Shown here: piece after piece, positions 6,514 to 32,899 of the stretch | How positions within the stretch are numbered: the first letter of the stretch is position 1 | Layout of the letters: every line of letters begins with the position of its first letter | Assembly: GCA_965208395.1 (NCBI GenBank) | Contig: CBDBON010000002.1 | Span: 532,010-596,009 of the forward strand | Direction: 5' to 3' | Origin: Dehalococcoidia bacterium | GTDB taxonomy: Bacteria; Chloroflexota; Dehalococcoidia; Lucifugimonadales; CBDBON01 | Length of the DNA: 64,000 bases | Position numbers and translations under genes: made by a program | The notes under the pieces: model-generated | Database searches by the model: none | The model's input: the letters and a program-made list of their open reading frames with translations, nothing else | Told to the model about the DNA's origin: nothing

Positions 6514-7794
6514 TCAGCAAGACATCCCGCTAGGTCCGCAGGCCCTAACGCCTAGAACAGCTATGCAGCGGGCCTTACTGATACACAATGCAACAATCGA
6601 GGAGGATGTGGGAAATCCCCATAGTGGTGGACTCCGGTGCACTGAAACAAGTACCGAGTCGTTCAGGGCCATTTTCTCGATTGCCTTCCTTGGAATCAAG
6701 CTATCGCTTGGCATAGGCACTGTGTATCTGAGGAGGGCGTCGCCGGGTATGACGACGATCTCCTTGACGAACGACTGGATGAAGGCCTTGCGTTCGGTCA
6801 GTTCGCCGTGCTTCAGGAAATCTCTCATCTCCTTGGCGTAGGCCTCCACGGTGTCCACGTCGTCCAGGACCGACCTGCGCTGAGTCAAGATCGCCCTGGC
6901 TGCCGATGCCTCGTCCTCAAGGAGCTCCTGCCGGTCCCTGAGTTCCCTGATGTGGTTTCCGGCGTCGGCCATGTCGATATTGTCGGTCTCCCCGATGAAG
7001 TGCCAGATGCGGCTAAGGTGCCGCTTCACATCCTCATGTTCCGTGTCTATCTCCTCCAGCCTCTTGTGCTGCCCGGCGGCCACCTTATCCATCTTCTCGT
7101 CCACGGTCTTCACCAGATCTCGGATGTTTCCTTCGGTGAGAACGTTGGAGCGAATCTTATCGACGACCAATTTCTCGAATCGTCGGGCGTTGAGCCTCGG
7201 GGTGTCGCATGACCCGCTGCCCTGCTTCATGAGGGTCTGGCAGACGTAGTATGGGAACTTGCCGCTCTTGGCGTACTGGCCGGTCAGTGCGCGCCTGCAG
7301 GGCTTACACTTGACCAGCCCGCTCAAGAGGAAGGGACTGGCAACCCTGCGGGGGTTGACCACCTTGGGCGCACGTGAGCGCATCAGCTTGGCCACACGGT
7401 TGAACTGGGCTTTGGAGACAATTGCCGGGAACGCATCGTCCACCTGCACGGGGTCGGCCCCGTCCTTGGCGTTCATGCCCCAGATCAAGGTGCCGGTGTA
7501 GGTCTCGTTGATGAGGATTGCGTGGAGGGTCGTCTTTCCCCAGGGATTTCCCCTAGGGCTGGCAATGCCCTCGTCGTTGAGCGTCCGAGCGATGTCGAGC
7601 GTCGACTTTCCGGCCTCCGACATGTCGAAGATGCGCCTGACGACCTGGGACGAATCGGGGTCGGGCTCCAATCTGGGTCTCTTCTTGGGTCCATCCTGTA
7701 CCATGATCCTACTGTAGCCGAACGGCGCCCCGCTGGACATCCAGAAGCCCCTCGATGCAGCTTCCCTCATTCCCCTGGTGACCTCCTGAGCCAG
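6514..7794 (-). pseudogene. Large serine recombinase, C-terminal fragment (recombinase domain, zinc ribbon, coiled coil); catalytic domain missing
   Basis: The open frame reads ..LAQEVTRGMREAASRGFWMSSGAPFGY..., then a C..C / YYVC zinc-ribbon region and a coiled coil. No S-R catalytic domain is present. It continues the fragment at 32459..32899. Confidence 0.8.
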
Positions 7795-8210
7795 GATATC
7801 GGTTATCCAATAACGACAAAAAAATCAGGTACACATGGGCGGCCGAACTTGAAGCCAACTGACCTCGGCAGCAGGGCGTGGTGCTACACGCAATTCCAGA
7901 GTCCGTAGCGGAGTCGCCCGAGGCCGAGACCGCAACGCTCACGTCCAGCGCCGCATCTGGCGCCGGGTTGGCCGTACAGCGTGAAGATGGCGTCCCCGCC
8001 CTCGGTGGCTCCGCTGGCCGCCGTGATGTCTATCGTGGGCGGCGGTGACGGGGTGGCGTCTTCACCCTGCTCGCTGGCGCGGCAGGTCTCCAGCGCGTCC
8101 AACTCCACCACCGCTTACGGTAGATACCGCCATATTCGAGATGTCGCTTGGCAGCCTGTCGGCGCACCAAGGACTTGCGATTCCTGTAGTGTGACACCCA
8201 ATTGCCATCG

Positions 8211-8780
8211 CTACTTGTAGTACACGGCGATGTAGGCATGGAAGAGACCCAGGACAACCGTGACGGCGGCCAGTGAGACGTGGGCAACTCCCCACGAGAC
8301 GGTGTAGTAGCGGTTGTTGATCCTGATGCCCAGGGGACTCGCCGCACCAACAAGCATGTTGCCCAGAAACACCCAGCTGAGCGCCGCCAGGTAGCCGTAG
8401 CCCACCTCCACGCTGTGCACGTAGAACAGCAGTGGCACCAGTGCGCCGGTCCGCTGATGCCACGGCAGCAGCCTCCGCAGATTCCGCCGCTTGAGACGGG
8501 AGTAGAAGAGCCACCACTGCCATCCCACATACGAAAGCAGTCCGGCGCCGGTGACATACTTGTACTCGTCCAGGTCTTGGGCCTGGGCGAGCCACTCCCA
8601 CCGCAGCCCAGCGACATCCTGGCCCACGTAGAGGAGCACGCTGAGGACACCCACCATCCGCCACCGCCACGCCGCTACCGGCAACGCGAAGGGGCGGCCA
8701 GCACGAACGGGCCTTCCCCGGCTCCCGTTGCTGTCGGCAGCTTCCACTGGAGATTCACCTACGGATTGGCCCGTTGTCAT
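8211..8780 (-). CDS. Polytopic membrane protein with conserved His in the helices (possible haem-b binding, cytochrome b-like)
   Basis: About 4 hydrophobic helices with His in PWHQRTG, YVHSVE, VAHVSL and LFHAYI. ATG 8780 overlaps the upstream stop as ATGA. The ORF track's start at 8900 overlaps the neighbouring gene. Confidence 0.5.
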   Translation of the reverse strand: MTTGQSVGESPVEAADSNGSRGRPVRAGRPFALPVAAWRWRMVGVLSVLLYVGQDVAGLRWEWLAQAQDLDEYKYVTGAGLLSYVGWQWWLFYSRLKRRNLRRLLPWHQRTGALVPLLFYVHSVEVGYGYLAALSWVFLGNMLVGAASPLGIRINNRYYTVSWGVAHVSLAAVTVVLGLFHAYIAVYYK

Positions 8781-9598
8781 CGCGCCTCCCCCATGTCTTG
8801 CGCCTCCAGCAGCAAGCGAAGGGTCTGGGCCGATGTCCTCTCCTCCACCTCCGCCATGAAGACATCGGCCGATGGCAGGAAATAGCCGTCTGCGGGCCAC
8901 AGGTCTCCCACGGGGGGAGGGTCGGCAAAGATGGCAACCTTATCCAGGTAATGCACATAGGCTTCACGGACGCTCCGGCGCAGAGCTCCTATCAGTTCCA
9001 TGGCCTCGGCCATGCTTATCTCGTCCTCCGGGTATGACCAGGTGGTCGCACCCATGACGTCGCCCACCTGCCAGTCGGTCTTGGGCGAGTTCGGGTCGCT
9101 GTTGTGGCAGACCACGCACGCCTCCGCCGAGGCGATGTCCGAGAACATGGCGGTCTGAAAGCCGATATCCGGGTCCAAGAAGAACTGCGGCTCGCCGGTG
9201 CGCCTGATGACTTGAAAGTGCTCTGTCTGCAAGCCGGTGAACTTGTTGGCGTCATTGATCGGGAAGTCCGAGCCGAGGAATAGATACAGGGGAACCGGAC
9301 TACGCCGGAGACCCTCGGCAGTCTCCCGCAGGAAGAGCGCCGGAAGCGGCCCGGCGTCCAGCCTCTCGTCATGCCAGTCCTCGTCAAATCGAATCCCCTG
9401 CGCTTGGCCCGCTCCCACAATGTCCCTGGCCCACACCTGGCGCACCGCGTCGTTCTCGGCTTCCAGCACTGCGAAAACAGCTTCAATGGGCACGGGCGGG
9501 CCGCCATCGGTGAGTGCGTCGTCCGGCGGCGGCGCATTCGCGACGATGAGCGCCACGAGCACGATGGCTACCGCCACGACCACGGCGACGAACTTCAT
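8777..9598 (-). CDS. Secreted or anchored c-type haem protein (DUF3365 / Tll0287-like)
   Basis: Signal anchor MKFVAVVVAVAIVLVALIV and a single CxxCH (ACVVCHNSDPNSPKTDW) in a DUF3365-like context. Its start overlaps the upstream stop (ATGA). Confidence 0.6.
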   Translation of the reverse strand: MKFVAVVVAVAIVLVALIVANAPPPDDALTDGGPPVPIEAVFAVLEAENDAVRQVWARDIVGAGQAQGIRFDEDWHDERLDAGPLPALFLRETAEGLRRSPVPLYLFLGSDFPINDANKFTGLQTEHFQVIRRTGEPQFFLDPDIGFQTAMFSDIASAEACVVCHNSDPNSPKTDWQVGDVMGATTWSYPEDEISMAEAMELIGALRRSVREAYVHYLDKVAIFADPPPVGDLWPADGYFLPSADVFMAEVEERTSAQTLRLLLEAQDMGEAR

Positions 9599-10221
9599 GG
9601 GTCGCCGCCTTCCCCGGTCGAGGACGGCTCGACGCGCTTCTCGTCGCCGTAGGGCGATGGCCCTCCCAGGAAGTATTCCAGGATGAGCGCCTCCGGCACC
9701 CCTTCTTCAAGGCACAGCGGCGTGTCCCGGACGTGGTTGCCGTGGAAGTCGTGGCACTGGAGGCAGGTGTTCCACGACCCCCTGCGCACCAGCTCTACAT
9801 GTGTGGGGGTGATGGGGTCGTCTTCCAACGAGGTGTCCTGGTGGCAGTGGGTGCAGAAACCGATGGTGGGCTGCGTCACCCGCACTCCCTGGTGCTCGGT
9901 GTGGCAGGTGACGCACGTGTGGGCCGCAATGTGCTCCCGCGCATCGGAAAAGCGCGGTTCCACAAAGCGGGATACGGGGTGTCGGTCATCCGGCCTCTCG
10001 TGGCAGTCCAGACAGGCCGCGTTACCGACATCCTCGGAGCCAAAGCCTATGGTGGACTCCCGCAGACCCAGCCAGTGGTAGACGTTGGAGCTCAGTTGTT
10101 GCGCGGCGGTGCCCGCCACGGCTGAGTGGCATTCCTGGCAGCCCAATCCCTCATGGCCCGTGTTCATGGGACCCTTGGCAACCAGCGCGTTGCGGTCCGG
10201 AAAAGTGAGAAACGCCACCAA
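9595..10221 (-). CDS. Pentahaem c-type cytochrome
   Basis: Five CxxCH motifs (CQECH, CLDCH, CVTCH, CTHCH, CLQCH) in 208 aa. A hydrophobic anchor (RYIGVAAGVALGLLL) is encoded in frame upstream of the listed TTG start, so the true start is uncertain. Confidence 0.8.
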   Translation of the reverse strand: MVAFLTFPDRNALVAKGPMNTGHEGLGCQECHSAVAGTAAQQLSSNVYHWLGLRESTIGFGSEDVGNAACLDCHERPDDRHPVSRFVEPRFSDAREHIAAHTCVTCHTEHQGVRVTQPTIGFCTHCHQDTSLEDDPITPTHVELVRRGSWNTCLQCHDFHGNHVRDTPLCLEEGVPEALILEYFLGGPSPYGDEKRVEPSSTGEGGDP

Positions 10222-10366: not shown

Positions 10367-11809
10367 TCATCTATCGGGACTGAAGCGCCCCTCCAGCCCG
10401 CAGGTCTCCGCCGCTCTCAAGAATGCTTCCGATGGTTCGCCCAAGCTGGCGTCCCGCATGGCCTCCGCCAGCTTCGCAGGCCCGCCCAGCTCCTCGAACA
10501 GGCAGGCCGCGCCCTCCCTGAAGTCGGGCGGCAACCCCAATCTCGGAGCGTAGGTCTCCCATTCATCGTCGTTCATGCAGACCACTGAGACGTTCAGTGC
10601 CGTCATCCCCAGCGCCAGGGAGTTTTCGGGGGCAAACCCGGCGACGGCCGGAGCCAACAGACCGCGCAGGTCAATCGGCACGAATCCCTCCCGTATGCAC
10701 AATGAAGTCTCTTCACTGAACGGTTCAACTTGCCCTACGAGCGTGGTCAGGAACAGCCTCAGCACCGTGTCGTCTTGCAGGCAGTTGACGATGTCCACGA
10801 CGGTCTCCAGCGAGCCGCCGGGAGAGCGCCCCGTCATCTGCAACAGTTCCTGTGGGCCGATGCCCTTATCGCCGAGGCAGGACTGTTCCCTGGGCGACAG
10901 TCCAGACAGGAACGTTTGGGGGTCGTCAATAGCCACGGGGTGCAGCGTGTCAGGCGGCAGCCCCATACCCTCCGTGGAAGTGTCGCCGCCTGTGCCACCG
11001 GAGCCGGAGTCGTCAGGCATGTTCTCCGACATTCCCGCAAAGCCCACGCCGCACTTGGCTGCCGTGGCTACGAACGCCGTAGGCAATCCCGATTCATCCG
11101 TTTGGAGCAGGGCTTCCGCCACTCCCGTCGGTCCGCCCAGTTCGGCCAACAGGCAATCCGTACCGGATTTGTCGCGAGGCCCTAACTCCAGTGCGGAGGA
11201 CGCCGCCTCCCACTCCTCATCGTTCAGGCAGGCGGTGAACGTCAGGAAACTCGCCATCCCAACTATCCGGGCATCCATCGCTCCGGCAGCCGCCCCGGGC
11301 GATTTCATCATTGGGCGCAGGTCCATCCCGCCCAGACCTTGGCGGATGCACACGGAGGTCTCATCACTCAATTCTCCGGTTGCCGTCAGCGGCTCGCTCA
11401 GGAACATGCGCAACACCGTCTCATCTTCGAGACAGTCGAGGATGGCGTCCCCCTCCTCGGCTCCATCGGTCGAGGTCATTGCCGTCATGATCTGGGCGAT
11501 GCCGAGATTGCCGTCGGCAAGGCAGGACTGCTCCTGTGCAGATAGAGCCGACAGGAACGTCTGTGGGTCGTCCAAATCCAGCGGTGCAAGGCTCCGGGCA
11601 GCCTCCGGTCTGTCCGCTTGCGGTGTCGCCGTCGCCGTAGGTTGCGGAGTGGCCGTCGGTGTCGGCGTGGCGGTGGCCTCCGGCGCACGGGTGGCCGTTG
11701 CCTCCGCCGTAGGCTGCGCGGCCGGGGCCTGGCCGTCGTCTGAGCAGGCCATGATCGAGAATAGCGAAGCCAGGACAACCAGGACTGCCACGAAGTGTTG
11801 CTTTGACAA
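10367..11809 (-). CDS. Lipoprotein with a T/P/A-rich linker and an internally duplicated Cys-containing domain
   Basis: Lipobox ..LFSIMAC|SDD. Two homologous halves: LDLDDPQTFLSALSAQEQSCLADGNLG... and VAIDDPQTFLSGLSPREQSCLGDKGIG.... Confidence 0.6.
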   Translation of the reverse strand: MSKQHFVAVLVVLASLFSIMACSDDGQAPAAQPTAEATATRAPEATATPTPTATPQPTATATPQADRPEAARSLAPLDLDDPQTFLSALSAQEQSCLADGNLGIAQIMTAMTSTDGAEEGDAILDCLEDETVLRMFLSEPLTATGELSDETSVCIRQGLGGMDLRPMMKSPGAAAGAMDARIVGMASFLTFTACLNDEEWEAASSALELGPRDKSGTDCLLAELGGPTGVAEALLQTDESGLPTAFVATAAKCGVGFAGMSENMPDDSGSGGTGGDTSTEGMGLPPDTLHPVAIDDPQTFLSGLSPREQSCLGDKGIGPQELLQMTGRSPGGSLETVVDIVNCLQDDTVLRLFLTTLVGQVEPFSEETSLCIREGFVPIDLRGLLAPAVAGFAPENSLALGMTALNVSVVCMNDDEWETYAPRLGLPPDFREGAACLFEELGGPAKLAEAMRDASLGEPSEAFLRAAETCGLEGRFSPDR

Positions 11810-11835
11810 GTTCGCCTCCCTGAATTAGACGGAGT

Positions 11836-14409
11836 TCACAACCTCGGATCGACCGGCTCGCTCTCAAGGGCGAGCACGCCGAAGGCGCACTCATGCACCC
11901 TGTAGAGGGGCTCTCGTTCCACGAATCGCTGGAGACCCTCTACGCCCAACGCGAATTCACGAAGGGCAAGAGACCTCTTTGCGGAGATGTTCCGGTTCCG
12001 CAGACGCTCCAAATTCTCCGGCAGCGTGTACTCGGGTCCGTAGATGATGCGCAGATATTCGGTACCCCTGCACTTTATGGCGGGCTGCGCCAAGCCACGC
12101 TTGGCCTTCGATACAAAGTCCAACGGCTTGACGACCATGCCCTCGCCGCCCGTACTCGTAAGTTCCTCCCACCAACCGGTGGCCTCAGATTCATCCGACG
12201 TGTCCAGTCGCACAACCTTATGCCGGGTGTCCCGGAAAAACTCAGAATCAGCCTCTTGCAGGCGCGTAGCGACGTTCATGTGCCACAGGTGGTCTTTGTC
12301 GGTGTGCAGTCGTCCTTCGCTCGCAAGCAGGTGGAAGGGCGCGAACTGGATGTCGGCCAGCGATTCGACCGGCCAGCAGTACCGGGCGTAGGCGTCGCCG
12401 TAGAGCTTGACCAGGCCGATCCTGTCTTCAACCCCGGCCAGGGTGTCGGCGACCTCGACGCCGCGAGCAGCCGTCTGCCGGAGGAGTGATCCGGCGGCCG
12501 TCAGGCTGGTGCGAGCAGCCGCACCGACGGCGGCGTACTGGTCGCTGAGCAGTTCCTGCGCCTTGAGGGACCACGGCATGATCTCGCTGTCCAGCACGAT
12601 CCAGCCCGTCTCCAGTTCATCCCAGAGCCCAGCCTCCGAGATGCCCCTGCGGACGCGTTCCATGAACGCCGACTCCAGGGCGCGGTCTCCAAAGAACCTT
12701 CGCCCCGTCCGCGTGTAACATGCGCCGACGCCATCGCCGGTGACGCCGAAGCGCCGCTCTATGGCAGAGGCGTCCCGCCCAACAACCACCACGGCCCGTG
12801 AACCCATGTGCTTCTCTTCGCAGACCACCTCGGACACGCCAGCGTTGCGGTAGTAGGTGAATGCCTCGGCTGGATGCTCCAGCAGGCCGGGGAGTTTGGA
12901 CGTCTCGGATGGAGAGATCGTGGGCGGAAGGTAGACGAGCCAGCGCGGGTCCAAGGCGAACCGGCTCATCACCTCAAGCGCCGCAGCAGCGTTCTCCTCC
13001 CGCACCGTGACATTCCCTCGCAGCCGGGTCGATACGACGCGCTTGCCGATCACGTCATCGATGTCGAGAAGGTTCGCCGAGCGGTCCGTGGCTGACCCGG
13101 TTGACTCCTCCGGCGAGACGGATTGGGCCAATGGTCTGACCGGCTCGTAGTAGACCCGCGCCGCCGGAACCGACACGAGCTCCTTCTCAGGGTACCGGAG
13201 CGCGGTCAGCTTCCCGCCGAACACGCAGCCGGTATCGATGTTGATGGTGCGGTTGAGCCACTCTGGTTCCACAACGGCGGTATGGCCGTAGACAACCGTA
13301 GCCTTCCCCCGATACTCGGCCGCCCAGTTGGCGCGTATCGGGAGTCCGAATTCGTCCTTCTCCCCGGTGGTCTCCCCGTACAGGCAGAAGTCCCGGACAC
13401 GGGCCGAGGCGCGGCCCTGGTACTCCGACTTGATGCCCGCGTGGGCCACCACCAGGTCCCCGTCGTCGAGCACGTAGTGGCTGATGAGCCCATCCAGGAA
13501 GGCAAGAGCCTGTTGCCGAAACGCTTCGGACTCCATGTCCAGTTGCGCCAGCGACTCCGCCAGTCCGTGGGTCACCTGAACGTTCCTGCCCTGGAGCTTG
13601 CGAGCCAGCTTGGACTCGTGATTGCCGGCTACGCAGAGGGCCGAACCGTCCGTCACCATCGACATCACGAGCTTGAGCACGTTGACGACGCCGGGGCCTC
13701 GGTCCACGAGGTCGCCCACGAACACGGCCTTTCGTCCCTCGAGATGGGATACCGAAAAGCCTACGCCGCCGTCAGACTCGGTGCGGGTCTCAATCTCATA
13801 GCCTAAGCGTTCCAGGAGGGCGAGGAGCTCATCGAAACACCCGTGGACATCGCCGATGACGTCGAAGGGGCCGCGCTCGTGACGCAGGTTGACCCACATG
13901 GGCGTCCGTTGAACGGTTGCGGAGTCAGCCTCTTCGGGAGAGTTGAGCACGAACACATGCCGGAAGCCCTCGCGCTTCAGCCCGCGAAGCGACCGCCTGA
14001 GCTGCTGGGCCTGCTGGCGCACCACGCGACCCCCAAATTGGCGGTCGGGGCGCTCTCTGTTGCGGGCCAGGCAGAGGGCCTCGGGCATGTTCAGGACGAT
14101 GGCCACCGGCAGGCAGTCATGCTCCCTGGCCAGTTCCACGAGGGACTTCCGCGCCTCCGGCTGGACGCTGGTGGCGTCAATGACCGTGAGGCGGCGGGAG
14201 CGCAGGCGCGTCGCCGCGATGAAGTTGAGCAGGGCAAAGGCGTCGGGAGTCGCCGCCTGGTCGTTGGCGTCGTCGGCAACCATCGCCCGGCAATCGTCCG
14301 AAGACACCACTTCGGTGGGCTTGAAGTGACGGGAGGCAAAGTGGGACTTCCCCGAACCGGTGGGGCCGATGAGAGCGACGAGACACAGCTCGGGAATGGA
14401 GATGTTCAT
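11836..14409 (-). CDS. pnkp: Polynucleotide kinase-phosphatase (RNA repair Pnkp: kinase, metallophosphatase and ligase-like domains)
   Basis: MNISIPELCLVALIGPTGSGKSHF (P-loop kinase), GDVHGC..GDLVDRGP..GNHE (calcineurin-like phosphatase), and a long adenylyltransferase-like C-terminus (CEEKHMGSRAVVVV). ATG 14409 overlaps the hen1 stop as ATGA. Confidence 0.85.
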   Translation of the reverse strand: MNISIPELCLVALIGPTGSGKSHFASRHFKPTEVVSSDDCRAMVADDANDQAATPDAFALLNFIAATRLRSRRLTVIDATSVQPEARKSLVELAREHDCLPVAIVLNMPEALCLARNRERPDRQFGGRVVRQQAQQLRRSLRGLKREGFRHVFVLNSPEEADSATVQRTPMWVNLRHERGPFDVIGDVHGCFDELLALLERLGYEIETRTESDGGVGFSVSHLEGRKAVFVGDLVDRGPGVVNVLKLVMSMVTDGSALCVAGNHESKLARKLQGRNVQVTHGLAESLAQLDMESEAFRQQALAFLDGLISHYVLDDGDLVVAHAGIKSEYQGRASARVRDFCLYGETTGEKDEFGLPIRANWAAEYRGKATVVYGHTAVVEPEWLNRTINIDTGCVFGGKLTALRYPEKELVSVPAARVYYEPVRPLAQSVSPEESTGSATDRSANLLDIDDVIGKRVVSTRLRGNVTVREENAAAALEVMSRFALDPRWLVYLPPTISPSETSKLPGLLEHPAEAFTYYRNAGVSEVVCEEKHMGSRAVVVVGRDASAIERRFGVTGDGVGACYTRTGRRFFGDRALESAFMERVRRGISEAGLWDELETGWIVLDSEIMPWSLKAQELLSDQYAAVGAAARTSLTAAGSLLRQTAARGVEVADTLAGVEDRIGLVKLYGDAYARYCWPVESLADIQFAPFHLLASEGRLHTDKDHLWHMNVATRLQEADSEFFRDTRHKVVRLDTSDESEATGWWEELTSTGGEGMVVKPLDFVSKAKRGLAQPAIKCRGTEYLRIIYGPEYTLPENLERLRNRNISAKRSLALREFALGVEGLQRFVEREPLYRVHECAFGVLALESEPVDPRL

Positions 14410-19309: not shown

Positions 19310-19341
19310 CATGTCCAGGAGAAGTGAAAGGAGGCAATTCA

Positions 19342-19542: not shown

Positions 19543-19543
19543 T

Positions 19544-19798: not shown

Positions 19799-19809
19799 GT
19801 ACGCTATCG

Positions 19810-24402: not shown

Positions 24403-25572
24403 TCAAGCAGCTCCCGCGGCCGACTGACGTAGCAGGGCGGAGTAGCTTGGGGCCACCACGTGGTCCACCGACACCCTCCCCGTGCCGTCGTACCCGGCCC
24501 GGAAGGCGTACTCCACCTCGGCTCCCCAGGGCACGCGCCCGCCGACGCGCACCGCGCCGCCCCTGGACGTGCCGTCTCTCCCGCGTGCGCCGTGCACCAC
24601 CATGCCGCTGCGCTCGCCCTTCTTCCAGCCGAGCACCTTCATCGCCACAGGCATCACCCGCTCCGGATCCTGCCGCTTCTGGAACAGCGCCCCGTGCAGC
24701 TTGCGCAGCACAACGGCCGACGGGCTGCGCTGGCCGTTCATGATCTGGGAGAGGTGGCCGGAGCTGATGCCCGCCCTGCGCGCCACCTCGTTCTGGCTGA
24801 CCCCGATGGCGTCCATCTGATCCCAGATGAACTGCCGGTCGATGTCGGGGCACCGGGCGGACGCTACCTTCGCCCGTCCACCAAGCACGGCCTCGACCTT
24901 GGCCTGGAGCTTCACCCCCATGCACTTGTGACCGCGCGCCACCTGGCTCAGGTACCCTGCGGACACGCCGACCATCTTGGCAAGCTCCTTCATGCTGATG
25001 CCGAGTGCGCGTGCGGCTTCCCGGATGAAGCTGCTGGCGTCGCCGTTCACGACCTCTCCCTGGCGGTTGGCGAGTTTGGCGGGGGCGACCCTGGCTGCCA
25101 CCCCAAGCACGGACTCGATCTGGGCCTGCGCCTTCACGCCCATGGTCCTGCGGCCCTTCGCTACCTGGGTGAGATACGAGTAACTCACGCCCGACCGGTC
25201 GGACAGCTCCAGCATGGTCATACCCATCGCCCTAGCGGTCTCTCGGATGAAATTGCTCTCGCCAGTCACTTCCTCGTTCTGTCGGTAGACGACGCCCTGT
25301 CCTGGGACCTCGCCCAGGATGGCGATGGCCTTCTCCCGCAGGCTGGGGGTCCAGGGCTTCTTGCCCGTGCCCACCTGGGACAGGTGGCTCGCGCTAACGC
25401 CCATCAGGGCCGCCAGTTCCTTCACGGTGAGGCCCTTCTTCCTGGCAGCAGCCCTGAGCTCGCTCTCGGGCCTGCCCACGCGCTCGGCGGTCGCTGCCGC
25501 ATTCGTCCGTGTGTCCGTCGTCTTCGTCGGGTTGGTCGTGGTCGTGGTCGTGGTTGTGGTTGCCGTCGTCAT
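24403..25572 (-). CDS. Protein with four tandem XRE-type HTH domains and an N-terminal poly-Thr tract
   Basis: Repeats: LTVKELAALMGVSASHLSQVGTGKK, MTMLELSDRSGVSYSYLTQVAKGRR, ISMKELAKMVGVSAGYLSQVARGHK, VSQNEVARRAGISSGHLSQIMNGQR. N-terminus MTTATTTTTTTTTNPTKTT. Confidence 0.7.
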   Translation of the reverse strand: MTTATTTTTTTTTNPTKTTDTRTNAAATAERVGRPESELRAAARKKGLTVKELAALMGVSASHLSQVGTGKKPWTPSLREKAIAILGEVPGQGVVYRQNEEVTGESNFIRETARAMGMTMLELSDRSGVSYSYLTQVAKGRRTMGVKAQAQIESVLGVAARVAPAKLANRQGEVVNGDASSFIREAARALGISMKELAKMVGVSAGYLSQVARGHKCMGVKLQAKVEAVLGGRAKVASARCPDIDRQFIWDQMDAIGVSQNEVARRAGISSGHLSQIMNGQRSPSAVVLRKLHGALFQKRQDPERVMPVAMKVLGWKKGERSGMVVHGARGRDGTSRGGAVRVGGRVPWGAEVEYAFRAGYDGTGRVSVDHVVAPSYSALLRQSAAGAA

Positions 25573-26503
25573 GTCGCTTCCTCCTGTGAATGAAGAAGCG
25601 GGACGGCCGCCACCCCCCGTGGGGCGGAGACAGTCCCGCTGTGAATTGGCGTCCCGAATGGCCGGGACTGTCTCCGTGGGTATTGGTTTTTGCTGGCAAA
25701 GAGAAGGACCGCCTCCCCTGCGAGGGAAGCGGCCCTGTGTTCGCCAACTGCTATGTGGGCCTTGCGTGCGAGAGCCGGGGCATGAATGCTGTCGAAGCCG
25801 ACTCCGACGCCCTTGACCTCGCCTACCGATTACTCAACGTGCATAAGCGCCTCCTTGTGGTTGTTGTTGACCCGCCCGGCATCCAGGGCGCGGTTTGCGT
25901 GTGCTGATTTCGATTGACGAATGACGCACTCCACCCACGGTCGGATGCCGGACGCGGGGACGAAGCGGACGAGAAGACGCAGTTCGGTCCCAGGTCCACG
26001 TCACGGGAGGAGCGACCGAGTGGGGGAGAACTGCGAGACGTGGTGCGGCCAACCTACTTGAAACCGTGGATCGGCGCGGTGATGAAGCGACGCAGTCCAG
26101 CGAGGTCGCGCAGGACGGCGTGCGTGGAACCTGCGACCCAACCGCGTGACGATTGCGCCGCAGCATGAGGACTAGCCGGGGCGCTGGGCGCACTCCGACC
26201 AGGGTGTCCTAGGGGTTGAAGCGAAACGCGCCTCAGCCGCTGCGAATGTGTCCCTCCGGGGCGGCCTTCGGGAGAGCGCGATGCTCGATCCCTCCGGTCT
26301 GACCCCCTGGGTGGCCTTCAGAGAGCGCGGTGCTCGATCCTACGCAGCCGGTCCCGGATTCGGGGGACGGGAACCCTCCAGGTTTCTCGGCATGAAACAA
26401 CTGGAAAAGCCTGAAACTGACTCCATTATTGCCGAACAACTGAGCGGATGGAAGGGTTTGGCGTCACCTGCGCCCAAAGTGTTCTGTCCAGTTCATGAAA
26501 ACC

Positions 26504-27385
26504 CTAAGCGCGCCGCCCCGGCCACCAGCGGCTTCGCCACAGGCCGCACGTGAGCGCCTTCCACAGCAGGTATCTCCAGGCCAGCGCCCTGCGGACATCG
26601 ACGAGGGTGTCCCTGCGCCAGTTGAACTGGGAGCTTCGGTAGAGTCCGTGCAGCGGCTCCGTCTCCGGCGGAAGGGTCATCCCGTACTCTTCGAGCAGGG
26701 CCACCTCCAGGCTACGGACCCGCGCCTCGGTCTCCAGCCAGGCCAGGCCCTTGCCTGTGCCCACGTGCCCCGCCTTCCATATTTCGCGCCACTCCTCGAT
26801 GAGGGGCCACGCCTCGCCGAAGACCTCCTCGTCGTCGGGCGCGGGCTCCTTGGTCACCAGCTCGGGATACAGCCGCTTCGGGTACCTGGCCCTCGCCGAC
26901 GGCTTGTCCGTCGCCGGGGCCTCCTCCAGCGCGTCTCCGGTTGCGTCCTGGGCCTCCGTCGGTCCCGTCGTGGACTCTCGCTGGGCTTCCGCACGCGACA
27001 GCCTCTTCTCGATCTTCGCTAACGCCCCGCTCTGCTCCTCACACAGGACTTTCACCTCGCCTTTGACGGCGTCCAGACCCTCGTGCAGCTCTTTCGCCAA
27101 CCCCTCCACCCGACGCTCCAGCGCGTCGTGACGCTTCCGCTGACGGGCGACGGACGAACCCACCCCATCCCGGAGGCCCCGCTCCAGGGCTTCCCTGAGC
27201 CGCCACGTCATTCCGCCGCCATCCATGCAGGCACCCACGGTCCGCCGGTCTATCCCCAGCGCCCGCGCCGCTCCCTTACGGCTCCCTTCTCTTCGCACCA
27301 CCTCGTGCAGCAGGGCCATGAGGCGATTGACGTGCTCCTCCTCGACGTCTCCCTCTTCGGTTATGACCTTCTCACTCGCTTCCAT
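26504..27385 (-). CDS. Island regulator-like protein (N-terminal HTH-like segment, charged middle, W-rich C-terminus)
   Basis: 293 aa. The segment GSRKGAARALGIDRRTVGACMDGG is HTH-like. SD GGAGGAGGG is upstream. A degraded paralogue lies at 28579..29282. Confidence 0.5.
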   Translation of the reverse strand: MEASEKVITEEGDVEEEHVNRLMALLHEVVRREGSRKGAARALGIDRRTVGACMDGGGMTWRLREALERGLRDGVGSSVARQRKRHDALERRVEGLAKELHEGLDAVKGEVKVLCEEQSGALAKIEKRLSRAEAQRESTTGPTEAQDATGDALEEAPATDKPSARARYPKRLYPELVTKEPAPDDEEVFGEAWPLIEEWREIWKAGHVGTGKGLAWLETEARVRSLEVALLEEYGMTLPPETEPLHGLYRSSQFNWRRDTLVDVRRALAWRYLLWKALTCGLWRSRWWPGRRA

Positions 27386-27399
27386 CAGTCCCTCCTCCG

Positions 27400-27591
27400 G
27401 TACAACATGTACCCGTTTTGTACACGGCTTGCCGATCCTCTGAGGTGTACAACATGTACCGCTTCAGCTACGGACGATGTACCACCCCGTCGCAACCGGT
27501 CCCTGACAAAAAGTGTTCGCTTTTCACGCCCTGTAGGGGCTGCTTTCCCCCTGTTCCAGCTTTGAAAACCGCCCAGATGTACAACATGTAC
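27400..27591. promoter_or_regulatory. Three exact copies of GTACAACATGTAC in the divergent control region upstream of 26504..27385
   Basis: Exact 13-mers at 27400-27412, 27447-27459 and 27579-27591, with an ACATGT palindromic centre. The first is 15 nt from the start codon. Confidence 0.45.
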
Positions 27592-27633
27592 ACGGACGCG
27601 TTTTCCTGTACTACCCCATGACATCACGGGAGG

Positions 27634-27835
27634 CCCCGTGGCGGGGTATCCCCTGGAAGGGGCTATCACGAATGAAACGGTTGCACGGATGAAGACCCCT
27701 TCCGAGGGATAACGCTCGTCTCTCCCATAGCCCACGCTGGTTGGAGAAAGCCAGTTGCAGTTCGGGCAGTCCTTTGATTCCCAACTCGAACGCCGGGCAA
27801 TCGACGCGACGAGAGTGGCAACCTTGAAAGAAGCC
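27634..27835 (+). other. Candidate structured leader/ncRNA, copy 1 (two hairpins, conserved core, TTGAAAGAAGCC)
   Basis: Hairpins CCCCG-tgg-CGGGG (27634-27646) and CCCC-tggaa-GGGG (27650-27662). Core GAATGAAACGGTTGCACGGATGAAGACCCCTTCCGAGGGATAACGCTCG (27670-27718). Homologous to 29783-30017. Confidence 0.3.
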
Positions 27836-28578
27836 GAGAACCAAACAGAATCAGAGAACAGTGGCCGGGCCATCTCCGAGTTCGGCGCGGCAACCAGCGA
27901 CTTCAACCCCGGCCCCGACGCGGAGGGCCGCCTCCGCCGTAACCGGCGACGGTGACAGCGCGACTGGCGATAGTGCGCAGGCGGCCACAACTGCGGCCCA
28001 CCCGTGCCTGTTCCCGCGCTTCTCACTGTCAGGCCAGAGATGACTGACGAGGCTAGGTGGCACACGTGGCAGGGCGGAACGTCTGGGACGTGAGCCAGCC
28101 AAAGGGACGCGCGAAGGGGACGAAGTGGGTTTGGGACGAGCAATCTGGCCCGGGAGTTGGTACTGACGGGGAGAAACAGCCAGACGTGCAGCGGCCAGCC
28201 TGCTCATGGACACAGGCAGCCGGGCGCGTGTCGGAACTGCGGTGCGACCGACTGCGTCAGCCATCACGCAGACATGCTGAACCGGTCGATGCGACAAGCG
28301 CCAACTTCGACCAGTTTGCCGGGGACGAGGCGCGGAAGGCGCACCCGTTCCCTTGGCCCGACGGAGAGGCGATCAACCCCAGCCGTCAGACCGGTGTCCA
28401 GCGGGTGAAGGACCAACGTCAAACTCCAACCCTCTGGACGGGACCGAGAACGGAGGCCCTTGCGTCAACTCCGTCGGTTCGGCCCGCACTGGTTGCGAAG
28501 GACCCAACGTCAAACTCCGCATTGCCAGCATTCCCTCTTGGGCGAAGCCCGTGCAACAGGGATCACGCACCCGGGTTT

Positions 28579-29282
28579 CTATGGTCGGAAACCCTGGAGA
28601 AAGCCAAACAGTGAAGTCATCATAGCCGATCTGTGAGGCCGAAAAGACCCCCTGCGTGCCCCCACCCCGGAAATTGCCCAAAGCGACCTGCACAACGTAA
28701 CGCCGGACGACCACGACTGCGTCCACAACCTCAGCGTGAGCGCCCGCCACCGGACGATGAGCGTCCAAGCCTCGCCGAATACCTCCTCGTTGTCATTGGC
28801 GGGCTCAATGGTCACTAGGTCGAGATACTTGCGCCGGGTCAAGGACTCCGACGGAGGATTTTTCTCCCGTCCTGACGCTCCGCTCCGTCTCCCCCTTCAT
28901 CAGCGCCTTGCTGGGAAGGAACGGCGTGGGCGTGAGCGCCCCCGGTCATCTTCGCCCCCATGAAGTCGTCCTGCCCCAGGGACTCCACCTCATTCTCTAG
29001 CACCCCCAACCGTTCCTCCAAGGCGTCGTTGGGCTCCCGCTGGCGGACCGCCGTAGAACCCACGCCCTACCGCAAAGCCCGCTCCAGGGCCTCCCGCATA
29101 CGCCGCGACAGCCTTCCCGTCCTTGCGCTCTCGGCCACCGTGCGCTGGTCGATCTCCAGCGCCCGCGCAGCGCCCCTGTACCCGCGCTCCCGCACCAGCT
29201 CTTGCAGCAACGTCATGAGCCGCATGTGGTACATGTTCTCCACGTCTTTGCTGTCCTCAATGCCGTGTCCGGTGGTCTTCAT
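28579..29282 (-). pseudogene. Degraded paralogue of the 26504..27385 regulator (split over three frames)
   Basis: ORFs 29067..29282 (..RGYRGAARALEIDQRTVAESARTG..REALERAL), 28839..29063 and 28579..28842 (..EPANDNEEVFGEAWTLI..) are collinear with the 293-aa protein (..KGAARALGIDRRTV.., ..EPAPDDEEVFGEAWPLI..). Confidence 0.55.
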
Positions 29283-29367
29283 GGCAATGTCCTCCTCCTC
29301 AAGAAATTCGTCTCAGCTGTGAATTCCGCCAAGTCCGTGTTTTCTGCGATGTCGCACCCCGCGTAAC

Positions 29368-29451
29368 GCACCCCCACCTCAAGCGCACTTTTTGGCCGGT
29401 TTTGTCATCGGGCCGTCGATTTTGCCCGCGTCATGCACCCCCACCTCAAGC
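29368..29451. promoter_or_regulatory. Two exact copies of GCACCCCCACCTCAAGC upstream of the degraded regulator
   Basis: 17-mers at 29368-29384 and 29435-29451, each followed by TTGTCATCG. They occupy the position that the 13-mers hold in copy 1. Confidence 0.4.
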
Positions 29452-29620
29452 CTCCTCTTGTCATCGCCGACCGGATTCCGCCCTTTCATCAGATTGCTCA
29501 CCGCTCACGTCCGGTAGAGGGGGTTTTGCCCCTGGTTCAGCTACGGAATCACGACTTTGACCAGTCAGTCACCAAACTCCTTTTCCTGTACACCCCTGCC
29601 ACTGCAAGAAACGGCCCGCC

Positions 29621-29666
29621 AAAAAGAGACCTCGGAAGGTGCCACCTTGCGTGAGGTCTTTTTTCG
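29621..29666. terminator. Bidirectional intrinsic-terminator-like hairpin
   Basis: AAAAAGAGACCTC-ggaaggtgccaccttgcgt-GAGGTCTTTTTT: a GC-rich stem flanked by an A-run and a T-run. Confidence 0.5.
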
Positions 29667-29782
29667 CGTCTGAACCGTTCACACTCTCTGGTGAACGCTG
29701 CGATCAAGTGCGTCGCAGCAGACCACGACGAGGTGAGCGAGGTGGCGCTGAGTTCGACAGAGCGACCAACAACCCCGGTGAC

Positions 29783-30017
29783 GCCGTGGCCTCCACGGCC
29801 TCATCCCGGTAGCCGGGTCTGGCCCCATTGCGTCTCGCCATCGCTACGGGGGATGAATGAAACCGGTTGCACGGATGAATACCCCCTCTGAGGGATAACG
29901 CTCGCCATTCCGGTCGCCCACACTGACGTAACGACCGGGCCGTAGTCCGGTAGGTCAACCCTGAGCACCTATCCGACCGCAAGCAAAGCGACAAGAGCAG
30001 CGATCTTGAAAGAAGCC
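29783..30017 (+). other. Candidate structured leader/ncRNA, copy 2
   Basis: Hairpins GCCGTGG-cct-CCACGGC (29783-29799) and CCCGG-tag-CCGGG (29805-29817). Core GAATGAAACCGGTTGCACGGATGAATACCCCCTCTGAGGGATAACGCTCG (29855-29904). Ends in TTGAAAGAAGCC (30006). Confidence 0.3.
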
Positions 30018-30212
30018 ACCCGCAGGACAGAGCAGAAGACGCGAAGGGAAGCCTCCGCGGAACTGCGCGTGGTGGCGATCAACTGCAACCCCGCTCCCGA
30101 CGCCCAGGACCGCCTGCGCAGGCTCTTCACGATACTGGCCAAGTTGACCCGGGACGAGGAGGCTTCCCCTGCGGACCCGACGCCTCAGCACGGCCCGGAA
30201 GGGGAGGACTGA
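30006..30212 (+). CDS. Small conserved ORF downstream of the leader element (TTG start)
   Basis: MKEATRRTEQ...AINCNPAPDAQDRLRRLF.. has a recognisable paralogue in copy 1 (LKEAENQTES...SDFNPGPDAEGRLRR, from TTG 27824). Function unknown. Confidence 0.3.
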   Translation: MKEATRRTEQKTRREASAELRVVAINCNPAPDAQDRLRRLFTILAKLTRDEEASPADPTPQHGPEGED

Positions 30213-30268
30213 GGCGTCTTGCAGGAAGCTGCGTCGTCCTTGACATGAGATTGCATTAGTGCCATCAT

Positions 30269-30517
30269 GTGAGTATCGTGAACAGGACTCTGGACGACAT
30301 GCGGCGCAACCCCCGGAACGTCCGGTTCGACGACCTCAGAAAGGTCTGCGACCACTACTTCGGAGAACCGAGGCAGAGGGGCAGCCATCTCTTCTACAGG
30401 ATGCCCTGGCAGGGCAGGCCGCTGGTGAACATCCAGCCCGTCCGGGGCATGGCCAAGGCGTACCAGGTCCGTCAGGCGCTCAAGGCAATCGACAGATTGG
30501 AGGAAATGCATGGCTGA
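30269..30517 (+). CDS. hicA: HicA-like toxin
   Basis: 82 aa with a ..RGSHLFYRMPWQGRPLVNIQPVRG..KAYQVRQALKAI pattern. It overlaps hicB by 8 nt. Confidence 0.55.
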   Translation: MSIVNRTLDDMRRNPRNVRFDDLRKVCDHYFGEPRQRGSHLFYRMPWQGRPLVNIQPVRGMAKAYQVRQALKAIDRLEEMHG

Positions 30518-30845
30518 ATTGATCGACCGCTACACCTACCGGGTCTTCTGGTCCGACGAGGACGGGGAGTACGTCGGCCTGTGCGCCGAGTTCGGCCTGC
30601 TGAGCCACCTGGACGATACCCCGGAAAAGGCCCTGACCGGGATTCGAGAGCTGGTGTCCCACGCCGTCCAACTGAATCTGGAGGAGGGCATCGAAGTCCC
30701 GGAGCCGATATCCACGCGCCGCTACAGCGGAACGATCACCCTGCGCATTCCCCCGGAGACCCACCGCGCCCTGGCGATGGAGGCCGCCGAGGCGGGCGTC
30801 AGCATGAACCGGCTGGCCACCGAACGACTGACGCTGCGACGTTAG
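30510..30845 (+). CDS. hicB: HicB-family antitoxin with a C-terminal ribbon-helix-helix
   Basis: YTYRVFWSDEDGEYVGLCAEFGLLSHLDDTPEKAL.. (HicB fold) plus SGTITLRIPPETHRALAMEAAEAGVSMNRL (RHH). Confidence 0.75.
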   Translation: MAELIDRYTYRVFWSDEDGEYVGLCAEFGLLSHLDDTPEKALTGIRELVSHAVQLNLEEGIEVPEPISTRRYSGTITLRIPPETHRALAMEAAEAGVSMNRLATERLTLRR

Positions 30846-30879
30846 CCTTAGCCAAGTCCTATACACAGAGGAGACAACC

Positions 30880-32496
30880 ATGCCAAGAATCAAGATGCAG
30901 CGCCGCAAGGCGAAGGAAGGCAGGGCGGCCATCTACGCCCGCGTCTCGGACCAGAGCCAGGACGCCGAGGACAAGACCTCCATCTCCGAGCAGATATCCG
31001 ACATGGAGGCCCACTGCGAAAAGCGCGGCCTGACCATCGTCGCCCGCTATCAGGAGGTGGGACAGGGCTGGTCGAAGAAGCGCCCGGAGTTCCAGAGGAT
31101 GCTCGCCGACGCCAGGCGAGGGCGCTTCGACACCATCGTCTGCTGGAAGTCCGACCGGCTCAGCAGGGGCATGTACCCCGCAGCCGCCCTCATGGAGGTG
31201 GTCGAGGCGCACCACATAGAGCTGGAAGCGGTCATGGACGCCATCGACATGAAGACCTTCGGACTGATGGCCGCCATCGGCAAGATCGAGCTCGACAACT
31301 TCCGGGAGAGGGCGTCGATGGGCAGGCGCGGCGCGGCCAAGCAGGGCCGCATCCCCATCGGCAACGTCCCCTACGGCTACCGCATCGGTGACGACGGCAG
31401 GCCCGAGTTAGAGGAGGACGAGGCCGAGGTCGTCCGGCGCATCTTCCGCATGTGCGTGCGGGACGACCTCGGAGCGCGGGTGATCGGCCAGCGGCTCATG
31501 GCCGACGGCGTTCCCGTCGCCAACGGAGGCAAGCGGTGGTGGGACGGCCAGATATACCGCATCCTCAGCAACGAGACCTACAAGGGGACGTGGTGGTACG
31601 GCAAGGCCCGCTACGTATCCACCGAGGATGGGACGCGAGTTTACGAGAAGGACAAGGAGACCTGGATACCCGTGCCGTTCCCGCAGCTAGTGGACGAGCA
31701 GACCTGGGATATGGCCCAGAGCCTCATGAAGAAGCGGCGCACCCGCTCCTACCGCAACACCAAGATATTCTACCTGTTGCAGCACCTGGTCCGGTGCACC
31801 GGATGCGGGATGCTGATGGGCTGCATGGCCACCAGGAAGCGGACGGTCAAGCGCAACGGCAAGGTCTACAAGTACGAGATGGACGTCCCCCGCCGCTACT
31901 ACAAGTGCTACGGCGTGCAGCACTTCCGCACGGGTTGCCGCAAGCACACGATGATCCGTGCGGAGCGGCTGGAGGGACTGGTCTGGGGCGAGGTCAAGAA
32001 GGTGCTGGAGTCCCCCGGCCTCATCGTCTCCGGCATCGAGTCGCTGGACACTCAGGAGGACGGAGGGCTGGAGAACCAGATTGCCAGGGCGGAGCGCGAG
32101 CTTCAGAGGGTGCAGTTCGAGGAAGACCGGGTGATCAGACTCTACGTCACCGAGAAGATCACCGAGGAGCAGATGGACCGGCAGCGCAAGTTCATCACCG
32201 AGCGGTTGGAGACGCTGCGGAAAGGGCTGGACGACCTCCGCGCCAGGGAGATGGCGGCGATGGAGAAGCTGGCTTTGGGTGAGCACGTGGTCGAGTGGGC
32301 CAACCGGGTCGGCGACAGACTGGACGACCTGCCGGACGAGGAGCGCCGCGAGGTGTTGCGGCTCCTTCTCGACGAGGTGACCATCGACGGGGAGAACAAC
32401 GTCAATCTCACCCTCGGCATCCCAACGGAAGAGTTAGAGTCAATTGAACCACCGGTAACAGATTCTCGCTGTAGAATTCGTCCACGCTCTCGATGA
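30880..32496 (+). CDS. Large serine recombinase (island integrase)
   Basis: AAIYARVSDQSQ catalytic Ser, resolvase domain, recombinase domain (PYGYRIG..), zinc ribbon (CTGCGMLMGC...YYKCYG) and coiled coil. The last ~12 codons lie beyond the island junction at 32458. Confidence 0.9.
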   Translation: MPRIKMQRRKAKEGRAAIYARVSDQSQDAEDKTSISEQISDMEAHCEKRGLTIVARYQEVGQGWSKKRPEFQRMLADARRGRFDTIVCWKSDRLSRGMYPAAALMEVVEAHHIELEAVMDAIDMKTFGLMAAIGKIELDNFRERASMGRRGAAKQGRIPIGNVPYGYRIGDDGRPELEEDEAEVVRRIFRMCVRDDLGARVIGQRLMADGVPVANGGKRWWDGQIYRILSNETYKGTWWYGKARYVSTEDGTRVYEKDKETWIPVPFPQLVDEQTWDMAQSLMKKRRTRSYRNTKIFYLLQHLVRCTGCGMLMGCMATRKRTVKRNGKVYKYEMDVPRRYYKCYGVQHFRTGCRKHTMIRAERLEGLVWGEVKKVLESPGLIVSGIESLDTQEDGGLENQIARAERELQRVQFEEDRVIRLYVTEKITEEQMDRQRKFITERLETLRKGLDDLRAREMAAMEKLALGEHVVEWANRVGDRLDDLPDEERREVLRLLLDEVTIDGENNVNLTLGIPTEELESIEPPVTDSRCRIRPRSR

Positions 32497-32899
32497 TGCC
32501 CTCAAGCAGCCTGCCGGTGGCGGTGTCCTCGGCCTGCTCGGTGATGGACACCACTCGGATGCCCTTGCGCCGAAGCATGGACTTGAAGGCGACGGCGTGC
32601 TCGCGCTTCCGGGTGAACCTCGAAAACTTCCAGACGAGGATTTCCTTGAAGGGAGCCTTGGGCTTGGCGGCCTCATCCAGCATCTTGCGGAACTCGGGGC
32701 GGTCGGCGACACGGCCGCTTTCGGCCTCGTCCACGTACTCCCGGAAGACCATGTATCCGTTTTTGGCGGCGTAGTCCCTGAGCGCCCTGAGCTGTGCAGC
32801 AACGGAGTTGTCCACGTCCTGCCGGTCGCTGGACACCCTGGCGTAGAGGGCCACGGGCGTGTAGTCGTGTCGTCGAATCATCCGTTCCTCCTTGCTCAT
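32408..32899 (-). pseudogene. Large serine recombinase, N-terminal catalytic-domain fragment (partner of 6514..7794)
   Basis: From ATG 32899: MSKEERMIRRHDYTPVALYARVSSDRQ...LLEGIIESVDEFYSENL. After nt 32459 the frame reads junk (LPVVQLTLTLPLGCRG*) that is island DNA. Confidence 0.8.

Follow-up and report, generated by a model that had tools for sequence, protein, structure and literature searches.

The window analysed here, 64,000 nucleotides (nt) of contig CBDBON010000002.1 from a Dehalococcoidia bacterium (GCA_965208395.1, positions 532,010–596,009 of the forward strand), contains two nested mobile elements, each with a gene for a large serine recombinase (LSR). We conclude that the inner element is very probably a site-specific LSR island, that its lineage uses as bacterial attachment site (attB) a conserved, motif-coding stretch within the gene of another LSR family, and that its insertion would reversibly disable the host island, which carries genes of a cyclic oligonucleotide-based antiphage signalling system (CBASS) and of AbiE. 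This conclusion is carried by the anatomy of the insertion, the seamless joint of the interrupted gene, the existence of empty sites, the recurrence of insertion at the same codon over a whole clade, and recent independent insertions. Recombinase-in-recombinase targeting in Dehalococcoidia is apparently clade-wide and specialised.

The outer LSR gene lies in two pieces on the minus strand, on either side of the inner island. The parts of the window that matter for the argument are given below by window position; domain and defence assignments stem from Pfam, PHROG and PADLOC searches of the open reading frames (ORFs) of the window.

6514–7794, minus strand: C-terminal fragment of the outer LSR (residues 147/148–572), with the end of helix E, the Recombinase domain, the zinc ribbon, the coiled coil and the tail.
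7792–7794: CAG, the shared core at the left island junction (attL), antisense of the Leu147 codon CTG.
7795–32458: inner LSR island, 24.66 kb, with a GC content of 0.636 against 0.607 and 0.576 in the flanks.
7795–7842, plus strand: left end of the island (right arm of its own attachment site, attP), GATATCGGTTATCCAATAACGACAAAAAAATCAGGTACACATGGGCGG, which recurs at the independent attL of loci L002 and L072 and is diverged in L074 and L076.
30880–32496, plus strand: inner LSR, 538 residues, with Resolvase, Recombinase and zinc-ribbon domains.
32459–32461: CAG at the right island junction (attR), the same core as at attL.
32462–32899, minus strand: N-terminal fragment of the outer LSR (residues 1–146/147), with the catalytic serine in YARVSS (translation and Pfam).

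Read from the ATG at 32899, the minus strand encodes MSKEER..VALYARVSSDRQ..ESVDEFYSENL (IIESVDEFYSENL), changes to the unrelated LPVVQLTLTLPLGCRG* after nt 32459 and remains open to 32408. In the minus-strand frame with its stop at 6514, three unrelated codons (DIL) precede AQEVTRGMREAASRGFW, and the frame runs for more than 420 residues onward. Joining 32899→32462 to 7794→6514 yields 1719 nt, a number divisible by 3, and a product of 572 residues. In this joined protein, Pfam recognises a Resolvase domain (residues 16–162, 7e-34, profile positions 1–143 of 145), with the joint at residue 147 inside the match, a Recombinase domain (residues 192–287, 2.4e-21) and Zn_ribbon_recom (residues 302–361, 1.1e-12); with three contiguous domains in one frame, the reconstructed protein is an LSR. 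More than 100 intact homologues, 70–96% identical to it, align without a gap over the joint, and the motif that spans it, EFYSENLAQEVT (EFYSENL|AQEVTRGMRE), is invariant among ten aligned homologues. Locus L001 holds an uninterrupted outer-type gene, the DNA of which matches the window from 33092 to 32459 and then from 7794 to 6699, with a 3-nt overlap, and L010 provides a second empty site. Chance is excluded as the origin of the joint, because the more than 100 homologues are gapless there and the empty site is present in L001 as an exact 25-mer.

The initial annotation, made from the letters of the window, had proposed the split gene with these coordinates, the same CAG at 7792–7794 and 32459–32461, an intervening length of 24,664 bp (7795–32458) and an intact 538-residue LSR at the end of the insert. 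All of this holds on direct reading of the window: the CAG is the sole identity between the two junctions, and Pfam finds all three LSR domains in the inner enzyme. The alignment of the fragments to intact LSRs, named there in advance as a check, places both as contiguous parts of a single LSR lineage, in which intact proteins are 85–96% identical to the joined one, and the postulated seamless joint is borne out by the 1719 nt in frame and by the Resolvase match that crosses it. The nested-element interpretation is upheld by these contiguous fragments, the empty sites in L001 and L010, and the insert's own intact LSR. Two details need correction. The N-terminal fragment had been described as a complete catalytic domain; the catalytic part is present, but the domain is not fully complete, as the break falls at the start of helix E, within the Pfam Resolvase model. 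The inner LSR does cross the right junction as claimed, with 11 codons rather than about 12. Of the two sequences that it had proposed to look for in relatives and reads, the predicted empty site was found in L001 and a circular junction was not found.

Two explanations of the split gene bear on these junctions directly. Since the source is probably a metagenome-assembled genome (MAG), and since such genomes contain several copies of LSR genes, both junctions might be artefacts of metagenome assembly over repeated LSR genes. Such a chimera deserves next to no credence: the same junction nucleotides occur in dozens of independent assemblies, including whole-chromosome records (OZ...), one core is common to both junctions, and the joined gene is in frame. 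Among archaeal elements, cases are known in which integration splits the integrase gene, for example that of the fusellovirus SSV1, and the split LSR might accordingly belong to the 24.7-kb element itself, with attP inside that gene. We reject this self-partition, the probability of which we consider negligible, on geometry and on the empty sites. The broken ends of the gene face the island and the intact ends (ATG 32899 and stop 6514) face outward, which is the opposite geometry; intact copies stand in a context of a ribbon-helix-helix (RHH) gene, LSR and defence genes without the island (L001, L121 and L122); and the island has a complete LSR of its own.

The interpretation as an island that integrated through its own recombinase leads to the structure of the inner LSR and of its predicted attachment sites. 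The inner LSR has a Resolvase domain (PF00239, 5.1e-26, residues 16–157) with the nucleophilic serine in the motif ..AAIYARVSDQSQ.., and PF07508 (1.3e-17) and PF13408 (4.3e-07) C-terminal to helix E. It is 25.5% identical to the outer LSR. At the position homologous to the target it reads IELDNFRERASMG, and therefore the inner LSR does not carry its own target. Codons 528–538 and the stop (DSRCRIRPRSR*) lie beyond the junction, where the inner ORF is read from the strand opposite to the coding strand of its target. From 32408 to 32496, this ORF shares 89 nt, in antisense, with the truncated outer ORF, so that transcription from the promoter of the outer RHH–LSR pair would enter the inner LSR gene from its 3' end, with a possible antisense interaction. 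As read from the sequence, attP includes the last part of the inner LSR gene and contains an imperfect inverted repeat with 11 of 15 positions matching, ATTGAACCACCGGTA / TATCGGTTATCCAAT, around ACAGGA; its arms are located at 32443–32457 and in the left end from 7795. The five attL junctions (the window, L002, L072, L074 and L076) share the left end GATATCGGTTATCCAAT..ACAAAAA..GGTAC..TGGGCGG, diverged in L074 and L076. In 41 aligned attR junctions, the switch from island to target falls at one and the same nucleotide. Their island side reads ..TCGATTGnnnCnCCGGTAT-CA and their target side (G/A)(A/G)TT(C/T)TC…GTAGAA(C/T)TC(G/A)TC, with all serine codon families occurring, and unoccupied sites read CAG, CAA and AAG.

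Recurrence of the insertion was assessed in related loci. A genome scan with LSR-internal motifs, restricted to one genome per species, gave 431 loci, and ±10 kb around 80 of them were examined; together with L002, found by protein look-up, these (L003–L082) form a set of 81. All 80 scanned loci stem from Dehalococcoidia/Chloroflexota MAGs, frequently with several loci per genome. In 42 of the 81 loci, hereafter class A, an antisense outer-type N-terminal fragment ending at residue 147–151 directly abuts the 3' end of the LSR gene (40 by automatic classification, plus L023 and L052 by inspection of ORFs). The target class follows the LSR clades in a neighbour-joining tree. Homologues of the inner LSR (67–97% identity) are very often exactly 537–539 residues long and end in ..PPVSDSRCRTRPRSR or close variants; tails resembling ..DSRCRTRPRSR, which is the antisense translation of (I)IESVDEFYSEN, occur in 44 of the 120 homologue clusters listed. 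The reverse query gave the complementary picture: with the N-terminal fragment, the best 120 clusters in the protein database are exclusively short, Resolvase-only orphans, and in at least 86 distinct orphans among them the outer-type sequence stops directly behind EFYSEN and gives way to L(L/I/M)PV(V/I/F)QS..TLPLG.., which is the C-terminus of the inner family read in antisense.

For 37 class-A loci, identities were determined separately for the last 900 nt of the island and for the adjoining 400 nt of the target. Where two loci agree to 99–100% on the island side, their target sides are 81–90% identical; island and target identities are 1.000 and 0.838 for L025/L026, 0.999 and 0.868 for L002/L010, and 0.982 and 0.838 for the window and L003. 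Near-identical islands thus reside at the same codon of clearly different LSR alleles, which points to insertions that were both recent and independent. An isolated accident (a chance landing, illegitimate recombination or pseudogene debris, without dedicated targeting) would fit the fact that L006, L007, L062 and L012 adjoin unrelated DNA. We nevertheless consider it highly improbable, in view of the same codon in 42 of 81 loci, the at least 86 database orphans and the same nucleotide in 41 alignments; the independent events in diverged alleles also argue against copies of one ancestral event.

At L002 (11529–13700) we observed a chain of broken recombinase genes, consisting of an inner-type LSR, an outer-type N-terminal fragment, an RHH gene, and the C-terminal fragment of a second outer-type LSR, which begins exactly at residue 147 and is followed by the left end of another island.

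We propose that the inner island entered by ordinary LSR integration of attP into attB. The attB would be a stretch of ~40–50 bp coding for ..IIESVDEFYSEN-L-AQEVTRGM.., the invariant start of helix E, and strand exchange would take place within the Leu147 codon (CAG on the plus strand). The insertion would thereby separate the catalytic domain of the resident LSR from its DNA-binding domains, with the ORF of the invader ending on 11 antisense codons of its target. The resident element would itself be an LSR-borne defence island (RHH and LSR genes, type III CBASS, AbiE and more) with its recombinase knocked out, and nothing short of a precise excision of the inner island would restore this LSR. 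We infer that the 538-residue LSR catalyses the integration and that the insertion can be reversed by excision. Precise excision would rebuild the outer gene, because both halves are still ORFs and both cores read CAG; the restored-gene junction predicted from the window is GACCTCCTGAGCCAGATTCTCGCTG, and the predicted circle junction is ..CCACCGGTAACAGGATATCGGTTATCC.. As long as the island is in place, the activity of the outer enzyme should be abolished and the outer island immobilised, because, judged by the known architecture of serine recombinases, the catalytic serine domain is parted from helix E and the DNA-binding domains. The site was likely chosen for its high conservation, for its presence in all places where such islands occur, and because its disruption is without cost for the cell.

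A different understanding of the same reversible arrangement is that of a domesticated switch, in which timed excision, as of the skin element in sigK or the XisF-dependent fdxN element, rebuilds the outer LSR and licenses the mobility of the outer island. Both halves of the outer gene are intact ORFs, the attL and attR cores are identical, and ~38 of 42 neighbouring N-terminal fragments align without frameshift or truncation. The recombinase gene at the element end, on the strand opposite to the interrupted gene, also corresponds to most cyanobacterial interruption elements (PMC4874684). The intactness of the N-terminal fragment, however, says little, because it is short (441 nt). Neither regulated excision nor an attP product was seen in metagenome scans, viral scans or homologue tails, and no restored site within one population was found. 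Some targets were hit twice, and the variable selfish or defence cargo and the movement between diverged alleles point to the behaviour of a parasite rather than of a fixed developmental device. We therefore regard a domesticated switch as unlikely and retain the interpretation of a site-specific island that parasitises another island's recombinase gene.

Several observations weigh against this interpretation or restrict it. Neither an excised circle (attP) nor a tandem junction was found: a scan of metagenome contigs for attL and attP junctions with the left-end 18-mer GGATATCGGTTATYCAAT gave 38 matches, none of which continued into the island and which thus represent chance; the same 18-mer had zero matches in viral contigs, and no homologue of the inner LSR has an attP-encoded protein tail. 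No candidate for a directionality factor was recognised among the inner-island ORFs by Pfam or PHROG, and these searches recognised no transfer, replication or phage genes in the island. The crossover has two candidate dinucleotides. A CA dinucleotide fits 41 of 41 attR and 3 of 5 attL junctions, and AG fits 5 of 5 attL and 29 of 41 attR, so that each candidate leaves exceptions in the population data. The relationship to the intact gene of L001 is uneven at the nucleotide level, the C-terminal part of the outer LSR gene (6699–7794) being 96.5% identical and the N-terminal part with the RHH gene (32459–33092) 83.6%, a mosaic that suggests allele exchange or recombination around the insertion of the inner island. 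Target specificity is not absolute: in three of the seven closest relatives examined (LSR identity 96–98%), namely L006, L007 and L062, the LSR is 96–97% identical to that of the window and non-LSR DNA follows past the same junction nucleotide; these contexts may represent either off-target insertions or later rearrangements. Finally, the data consist throughout of MAGs, and the work is one of sequence comparison.

At L006 (10001–12439), the ORF of the inner-type LSR continues past the junction for ~280 extra codons and forms a fusion ORF of 812 residues. The extra codons (..GAIMVTQQPG..) are presumably the C-terminal part of another gene, ATPase-like by eye, and the fusion, too, may stem from either an off-target insertion or a rearrangement.

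Related LSRs abut other targets. In a second class of seven loci (class B), which represents a sister clade of the inner LSR, the abutting fragment ends at residue 250–256, at the conserved site ..YTGTL|(I/V)WG.. around codon 250 of the same target gene family (the regions concerned are 1–12320 in L069 and around 11540–11910 in L030, L051, L066, L072, L074 and L076). Both ends of an island of ~10.6 kb are available in L069, with ..NEVYTGTLV at the end of the N-terminal fragment, (L)VWGTTAKD at the start of the C-terminal one and ACCAG as the common core; the arms of this island are homologous to the class-A arms, yet diverged. The two target sites are alike, following Y-S/T-E/G-N/T-L, and a few class-A-type elements occupy the second site (L030, P0354 and P0359). 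Three loci (L072, L074 and L076), and L051 as a variant, retain no more of the target gene than a middle piece, residues 147–256 (110 codons), flanked by a class-B LSR on one side and the left end of a class-A island on the other. This double-flanked piece implies that one recombinase gene was cut into three by two islands. Another 11 loci, which form their own clade (L047, L054–L056, L061, L065, L073, L078, L079, L081 and L082), abut fragments of SNF2-like helicase genes (..TIVWDE|DYSVYxxRQASRRSWRIGQ..) just downstream of the LSR gene, at ~11550–12500. The abutted fragments differ in orientation and in position, and suggest a third target of mobile-element type. Some streptococcal integrative and mobilizable elements (IMEs) target SNF2 genes.

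These classes may be parts of a larger whole. On balance neither favoured nor disfavoured by us is the wider idea of a Dehalococcoidia guild of 'hyperparasitic' LSR islands, the attachment sites of which would be conserved motif-coding segments in core genes of other mobile elements (EFYSEN-L, YTGT-L and the SNF2-like gene); defence islands would thereby be locked in and islands stacked, giving LSR genes in three pieces and series of broken recombinases, with recombinase genes serving as a renewable landing pad and battleground as defence islands grow.

The cargo of the inner island of the window consists of the following genes, in addition to a solute-binding protein gene and several ORFs without a family match.

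8777–10221, minus strand: Tll0287-like protein and multihaem c-type cytochrome (Pfam).
11836–15806, minus strand: RNA-repair pair of Pnkp (kinase/phosphatase/ligase) and Hen1 (Pfam PNKP_ligase 3.9e-177, Hen1_L 1.9e-106).
16505–22874, plus strand: type I restriction–modification (R-M) system, with hsdR at 16505–19309, hsdS at 19810–21375 and hsdM at 21372–22874 (Pfam).
24403–30879: conserved backbone upstream of the inner LSR, with a regulator containing four helix-turn-helix (HTH) domains (24403–25572, minus strand) and ORFs without assigned function (Pfam).

From 24407 to the junction, this backbone is 85–97% identical at the nucleotide level to that of L003–L007 and L062, and the cargo further to the left differs; the backbone ORFs gave no match in PHROG or PADLOC. 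The Pnkp/Hen1 pair is found here as mobile cargo beside a type I R-M system, a pairing that would be compatible with a function against ribotoxins. Among the 20 ORFs scanned in the inner island, Pfam detected no phage structural or lysis, relaxase, coupling-protein or type IV secretion system families; nine inner-island ORFs were tested against PHROG without a match, PADLOC support for a phage or an integrative and conjugative element (ICE) was likewise absent, and no replication genes were recognised by Pfam or PHROGs. We therefore rejected a prophage or ICE/IME nature of the inner island.

The outer island, the host of the insertion, includes the following features.

6514–6625, minus strand: last 36 codons of the outer LSR gene, outside the outer element (comparison with L121).
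32896–33129, minus strand: CopG/Arc-type RHH gene, overlapping the start of the outer LSR gene by 4 nt (ORF and PHROG matches to CopG/Arc repressors).
33117–38750, plus strand: LexA-like S24 regulator, followed by a type III CBASS-like set and one gene without assigned function (Pfam).
40020–43044, plus strand: AbiEi/AbiEii pair and a DUF2971 protein (PADLOC candidate PDC-S31; Pfam, PADLOC).
49916–52344, plus strand: IS21-family insertion sequence (IS) with istA/istB (Pfam rve and Mu-transpos_C_2, IstB_IS21).

The window and L121 are the same up to 6625 (..CACCGGAGTCCACCA) and unrelated past it. As this identity stops there, the left end of the outer island, with its own attachment junction, would lie at ~6625, the LSR ORF entering the flank by 36 codons. 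Homologues of the outer LSR diverge past ..LVSVHRSPP, and left of 6514 are housekeeping genes for thioredoxin, γ-glutamyltranspeptidase and an enolase-superfamily enzyme. The arrangement is accordingly one of nested elements, with the junctions of the guest at 7794/7795 and 32461/32462, the left boundary of the host at ~6625, and the host's RHH–LSR module and cargo extending to the right. No right boundary of the outer island was found within the 64-kb window, and it may lie beyond. The idea that the outer LSR family uses one conserved target in the chromosome was rejected, since the flanks past ..GTCCACCA differ among the window, L121 and L122. No tRNA genes that could serve as attachment sites are present in the window, and no conjugation genes were seen in it for either element.

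A pair of RHH_1 and LSR genes recurs at the ends of defence islands in L002, L121 and L122, and this pair is the predicted conserved integration module of the outer family. At L122 (9792–19269), two outer-type RHH–LSR modules face each other across ~5.7 kb that contain ATPase, ORC/CDC6-like and DUF2971 genes. Islands of the outer type apparently cluster end to end. In the window, the type III CBASS-like set consists of a SMODS CD-NTase, a HORMA protein, an AAA+ ATPase and a SAVED-Cap4 effector. The LexA-like HTH–S24 peptidase gene that precedes this operon is divergent from the RHH–LSR module and may encode a damage-responsive regulator. Further to the right (45665–52344) are genes for an ABC/SMC-type ATPase, with weak PADLOC matches to mad3, Ppl and LmuB, for an HATPase protein and for a protein resembling a response regulator–TCAD9–kinase. 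The IS21 copy and then a pPIWI-associated nuclease gene follow 3' of the ABC/SMC-type ATPase region, and the IS may interrupt a conflict system. A minus-strand ORF at 58537–59565 encodes collagen triple-helix repeats (Pfam Collagen, 4.4e-24). The region around it contains uncharacterised genes, ends with a Toprim/DUF6371 primase-like gene (61932–63998) and may still belong to the outer island.

If the proposed targeting is correct, it is of importance in several respects. It would provide a concrete mechanism by which, in uncultured and slow-growing Chloroflexota, mobile defence islands become fixed and are then built up by other islands, and an example of element-versus-element conflict that acts directly on the mobility enzyme. 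It would supply many natural sets of LSR, attP and attB, including dozens of attB variants with differences at wobble positions and even a change of serine codon family. The sister clade, retargeted to a look-alike site, would add material on the tolerance and evolution of LSR target specificity, which is useful for genome engineering. It would also be a warning for annotation, as 'Resolvase-only' orphans of 157 residues and 'Recombinase+Zn-ribbon' orphans of these genomes would be the two halves of occupied landing sites.

Individual aspects of this system resemble known ones. With SSV1-type integrases it shares N- and C-terminal integrase halves that flank integrated DNA, but there attP lies in the element's own gene, whereas here a foreign element with its own LSR splits the gene and the geometry is inverted. 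As in the skin element with SpoIVCA of B. subtilis, SPbeta with SprA, and the Anabaena fdxN element with XisF (PMC4874684), an LSR-bearing element splits an ORF that precise excision would rebuild, and the recombinase gene is located at the element end, antisense to the interrupted gene. Those elements, however, interrupt host genes and are developmentally timed, in terminally differentiated cells, whereas the clade of the inner LSR appears dedicated to the recombinase gene of other islands and shows signs of recent horizontal spread between alleles. Single elements that interrupt transposase genes or an 'integrase family protein' gene are listed in the same cyanobacterial survey (PMC4874684).

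Nested ('matryoshka') elements have been described in Firmicutes, with IMEs in the origin of transfer (oriT) or in genes of ICEs, and Tn1806 in ICESa2603 (PMC12084326, PMC7563843, PMC12942858). Common to these and the present elements are site-specific insertion in a conserved part of another element and the possibility of several nesting levels. The guests in Firmicutes insert into oriT or transfer functions and are carried along by the conjugation of the host ICE; here, in Chloroflexota, the guest would inactivate the integrase of its host, and the window contains no conjugation genes. In the literature searched, the coverage of which is incomplete and does not prove novelty, no account was found of LSRs that, as a lineage, specialise in the gene of a different LSR family.

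That mobile elements nest, and that they integrate site-specifically into conserved genes, is established; the apparent novelty is an entire lineage of recombinases with its natural attB within the gene of another recombinase family. The closest comparison is with the LSRs surveyed by Durrant et al. in 2022 (PMC10083194). The main text of this survey names as targets competence genes, Mg-chelatase/ComM-like and prolyl-isomerase genes, and no recombinase genes. The surveyed enzymes and the inner LSR have in common the three-domain structure, a fixed position in a conserved coding sequence, the use of one target by diverse LSRs and, on the predicted attachment sites of the inner island, short sites with a tiny shared core and a recombinase gene at the element end beside attP. 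The difference lies in the target, which here is the gene of another LSR family, that is, the mobility gene of another element.

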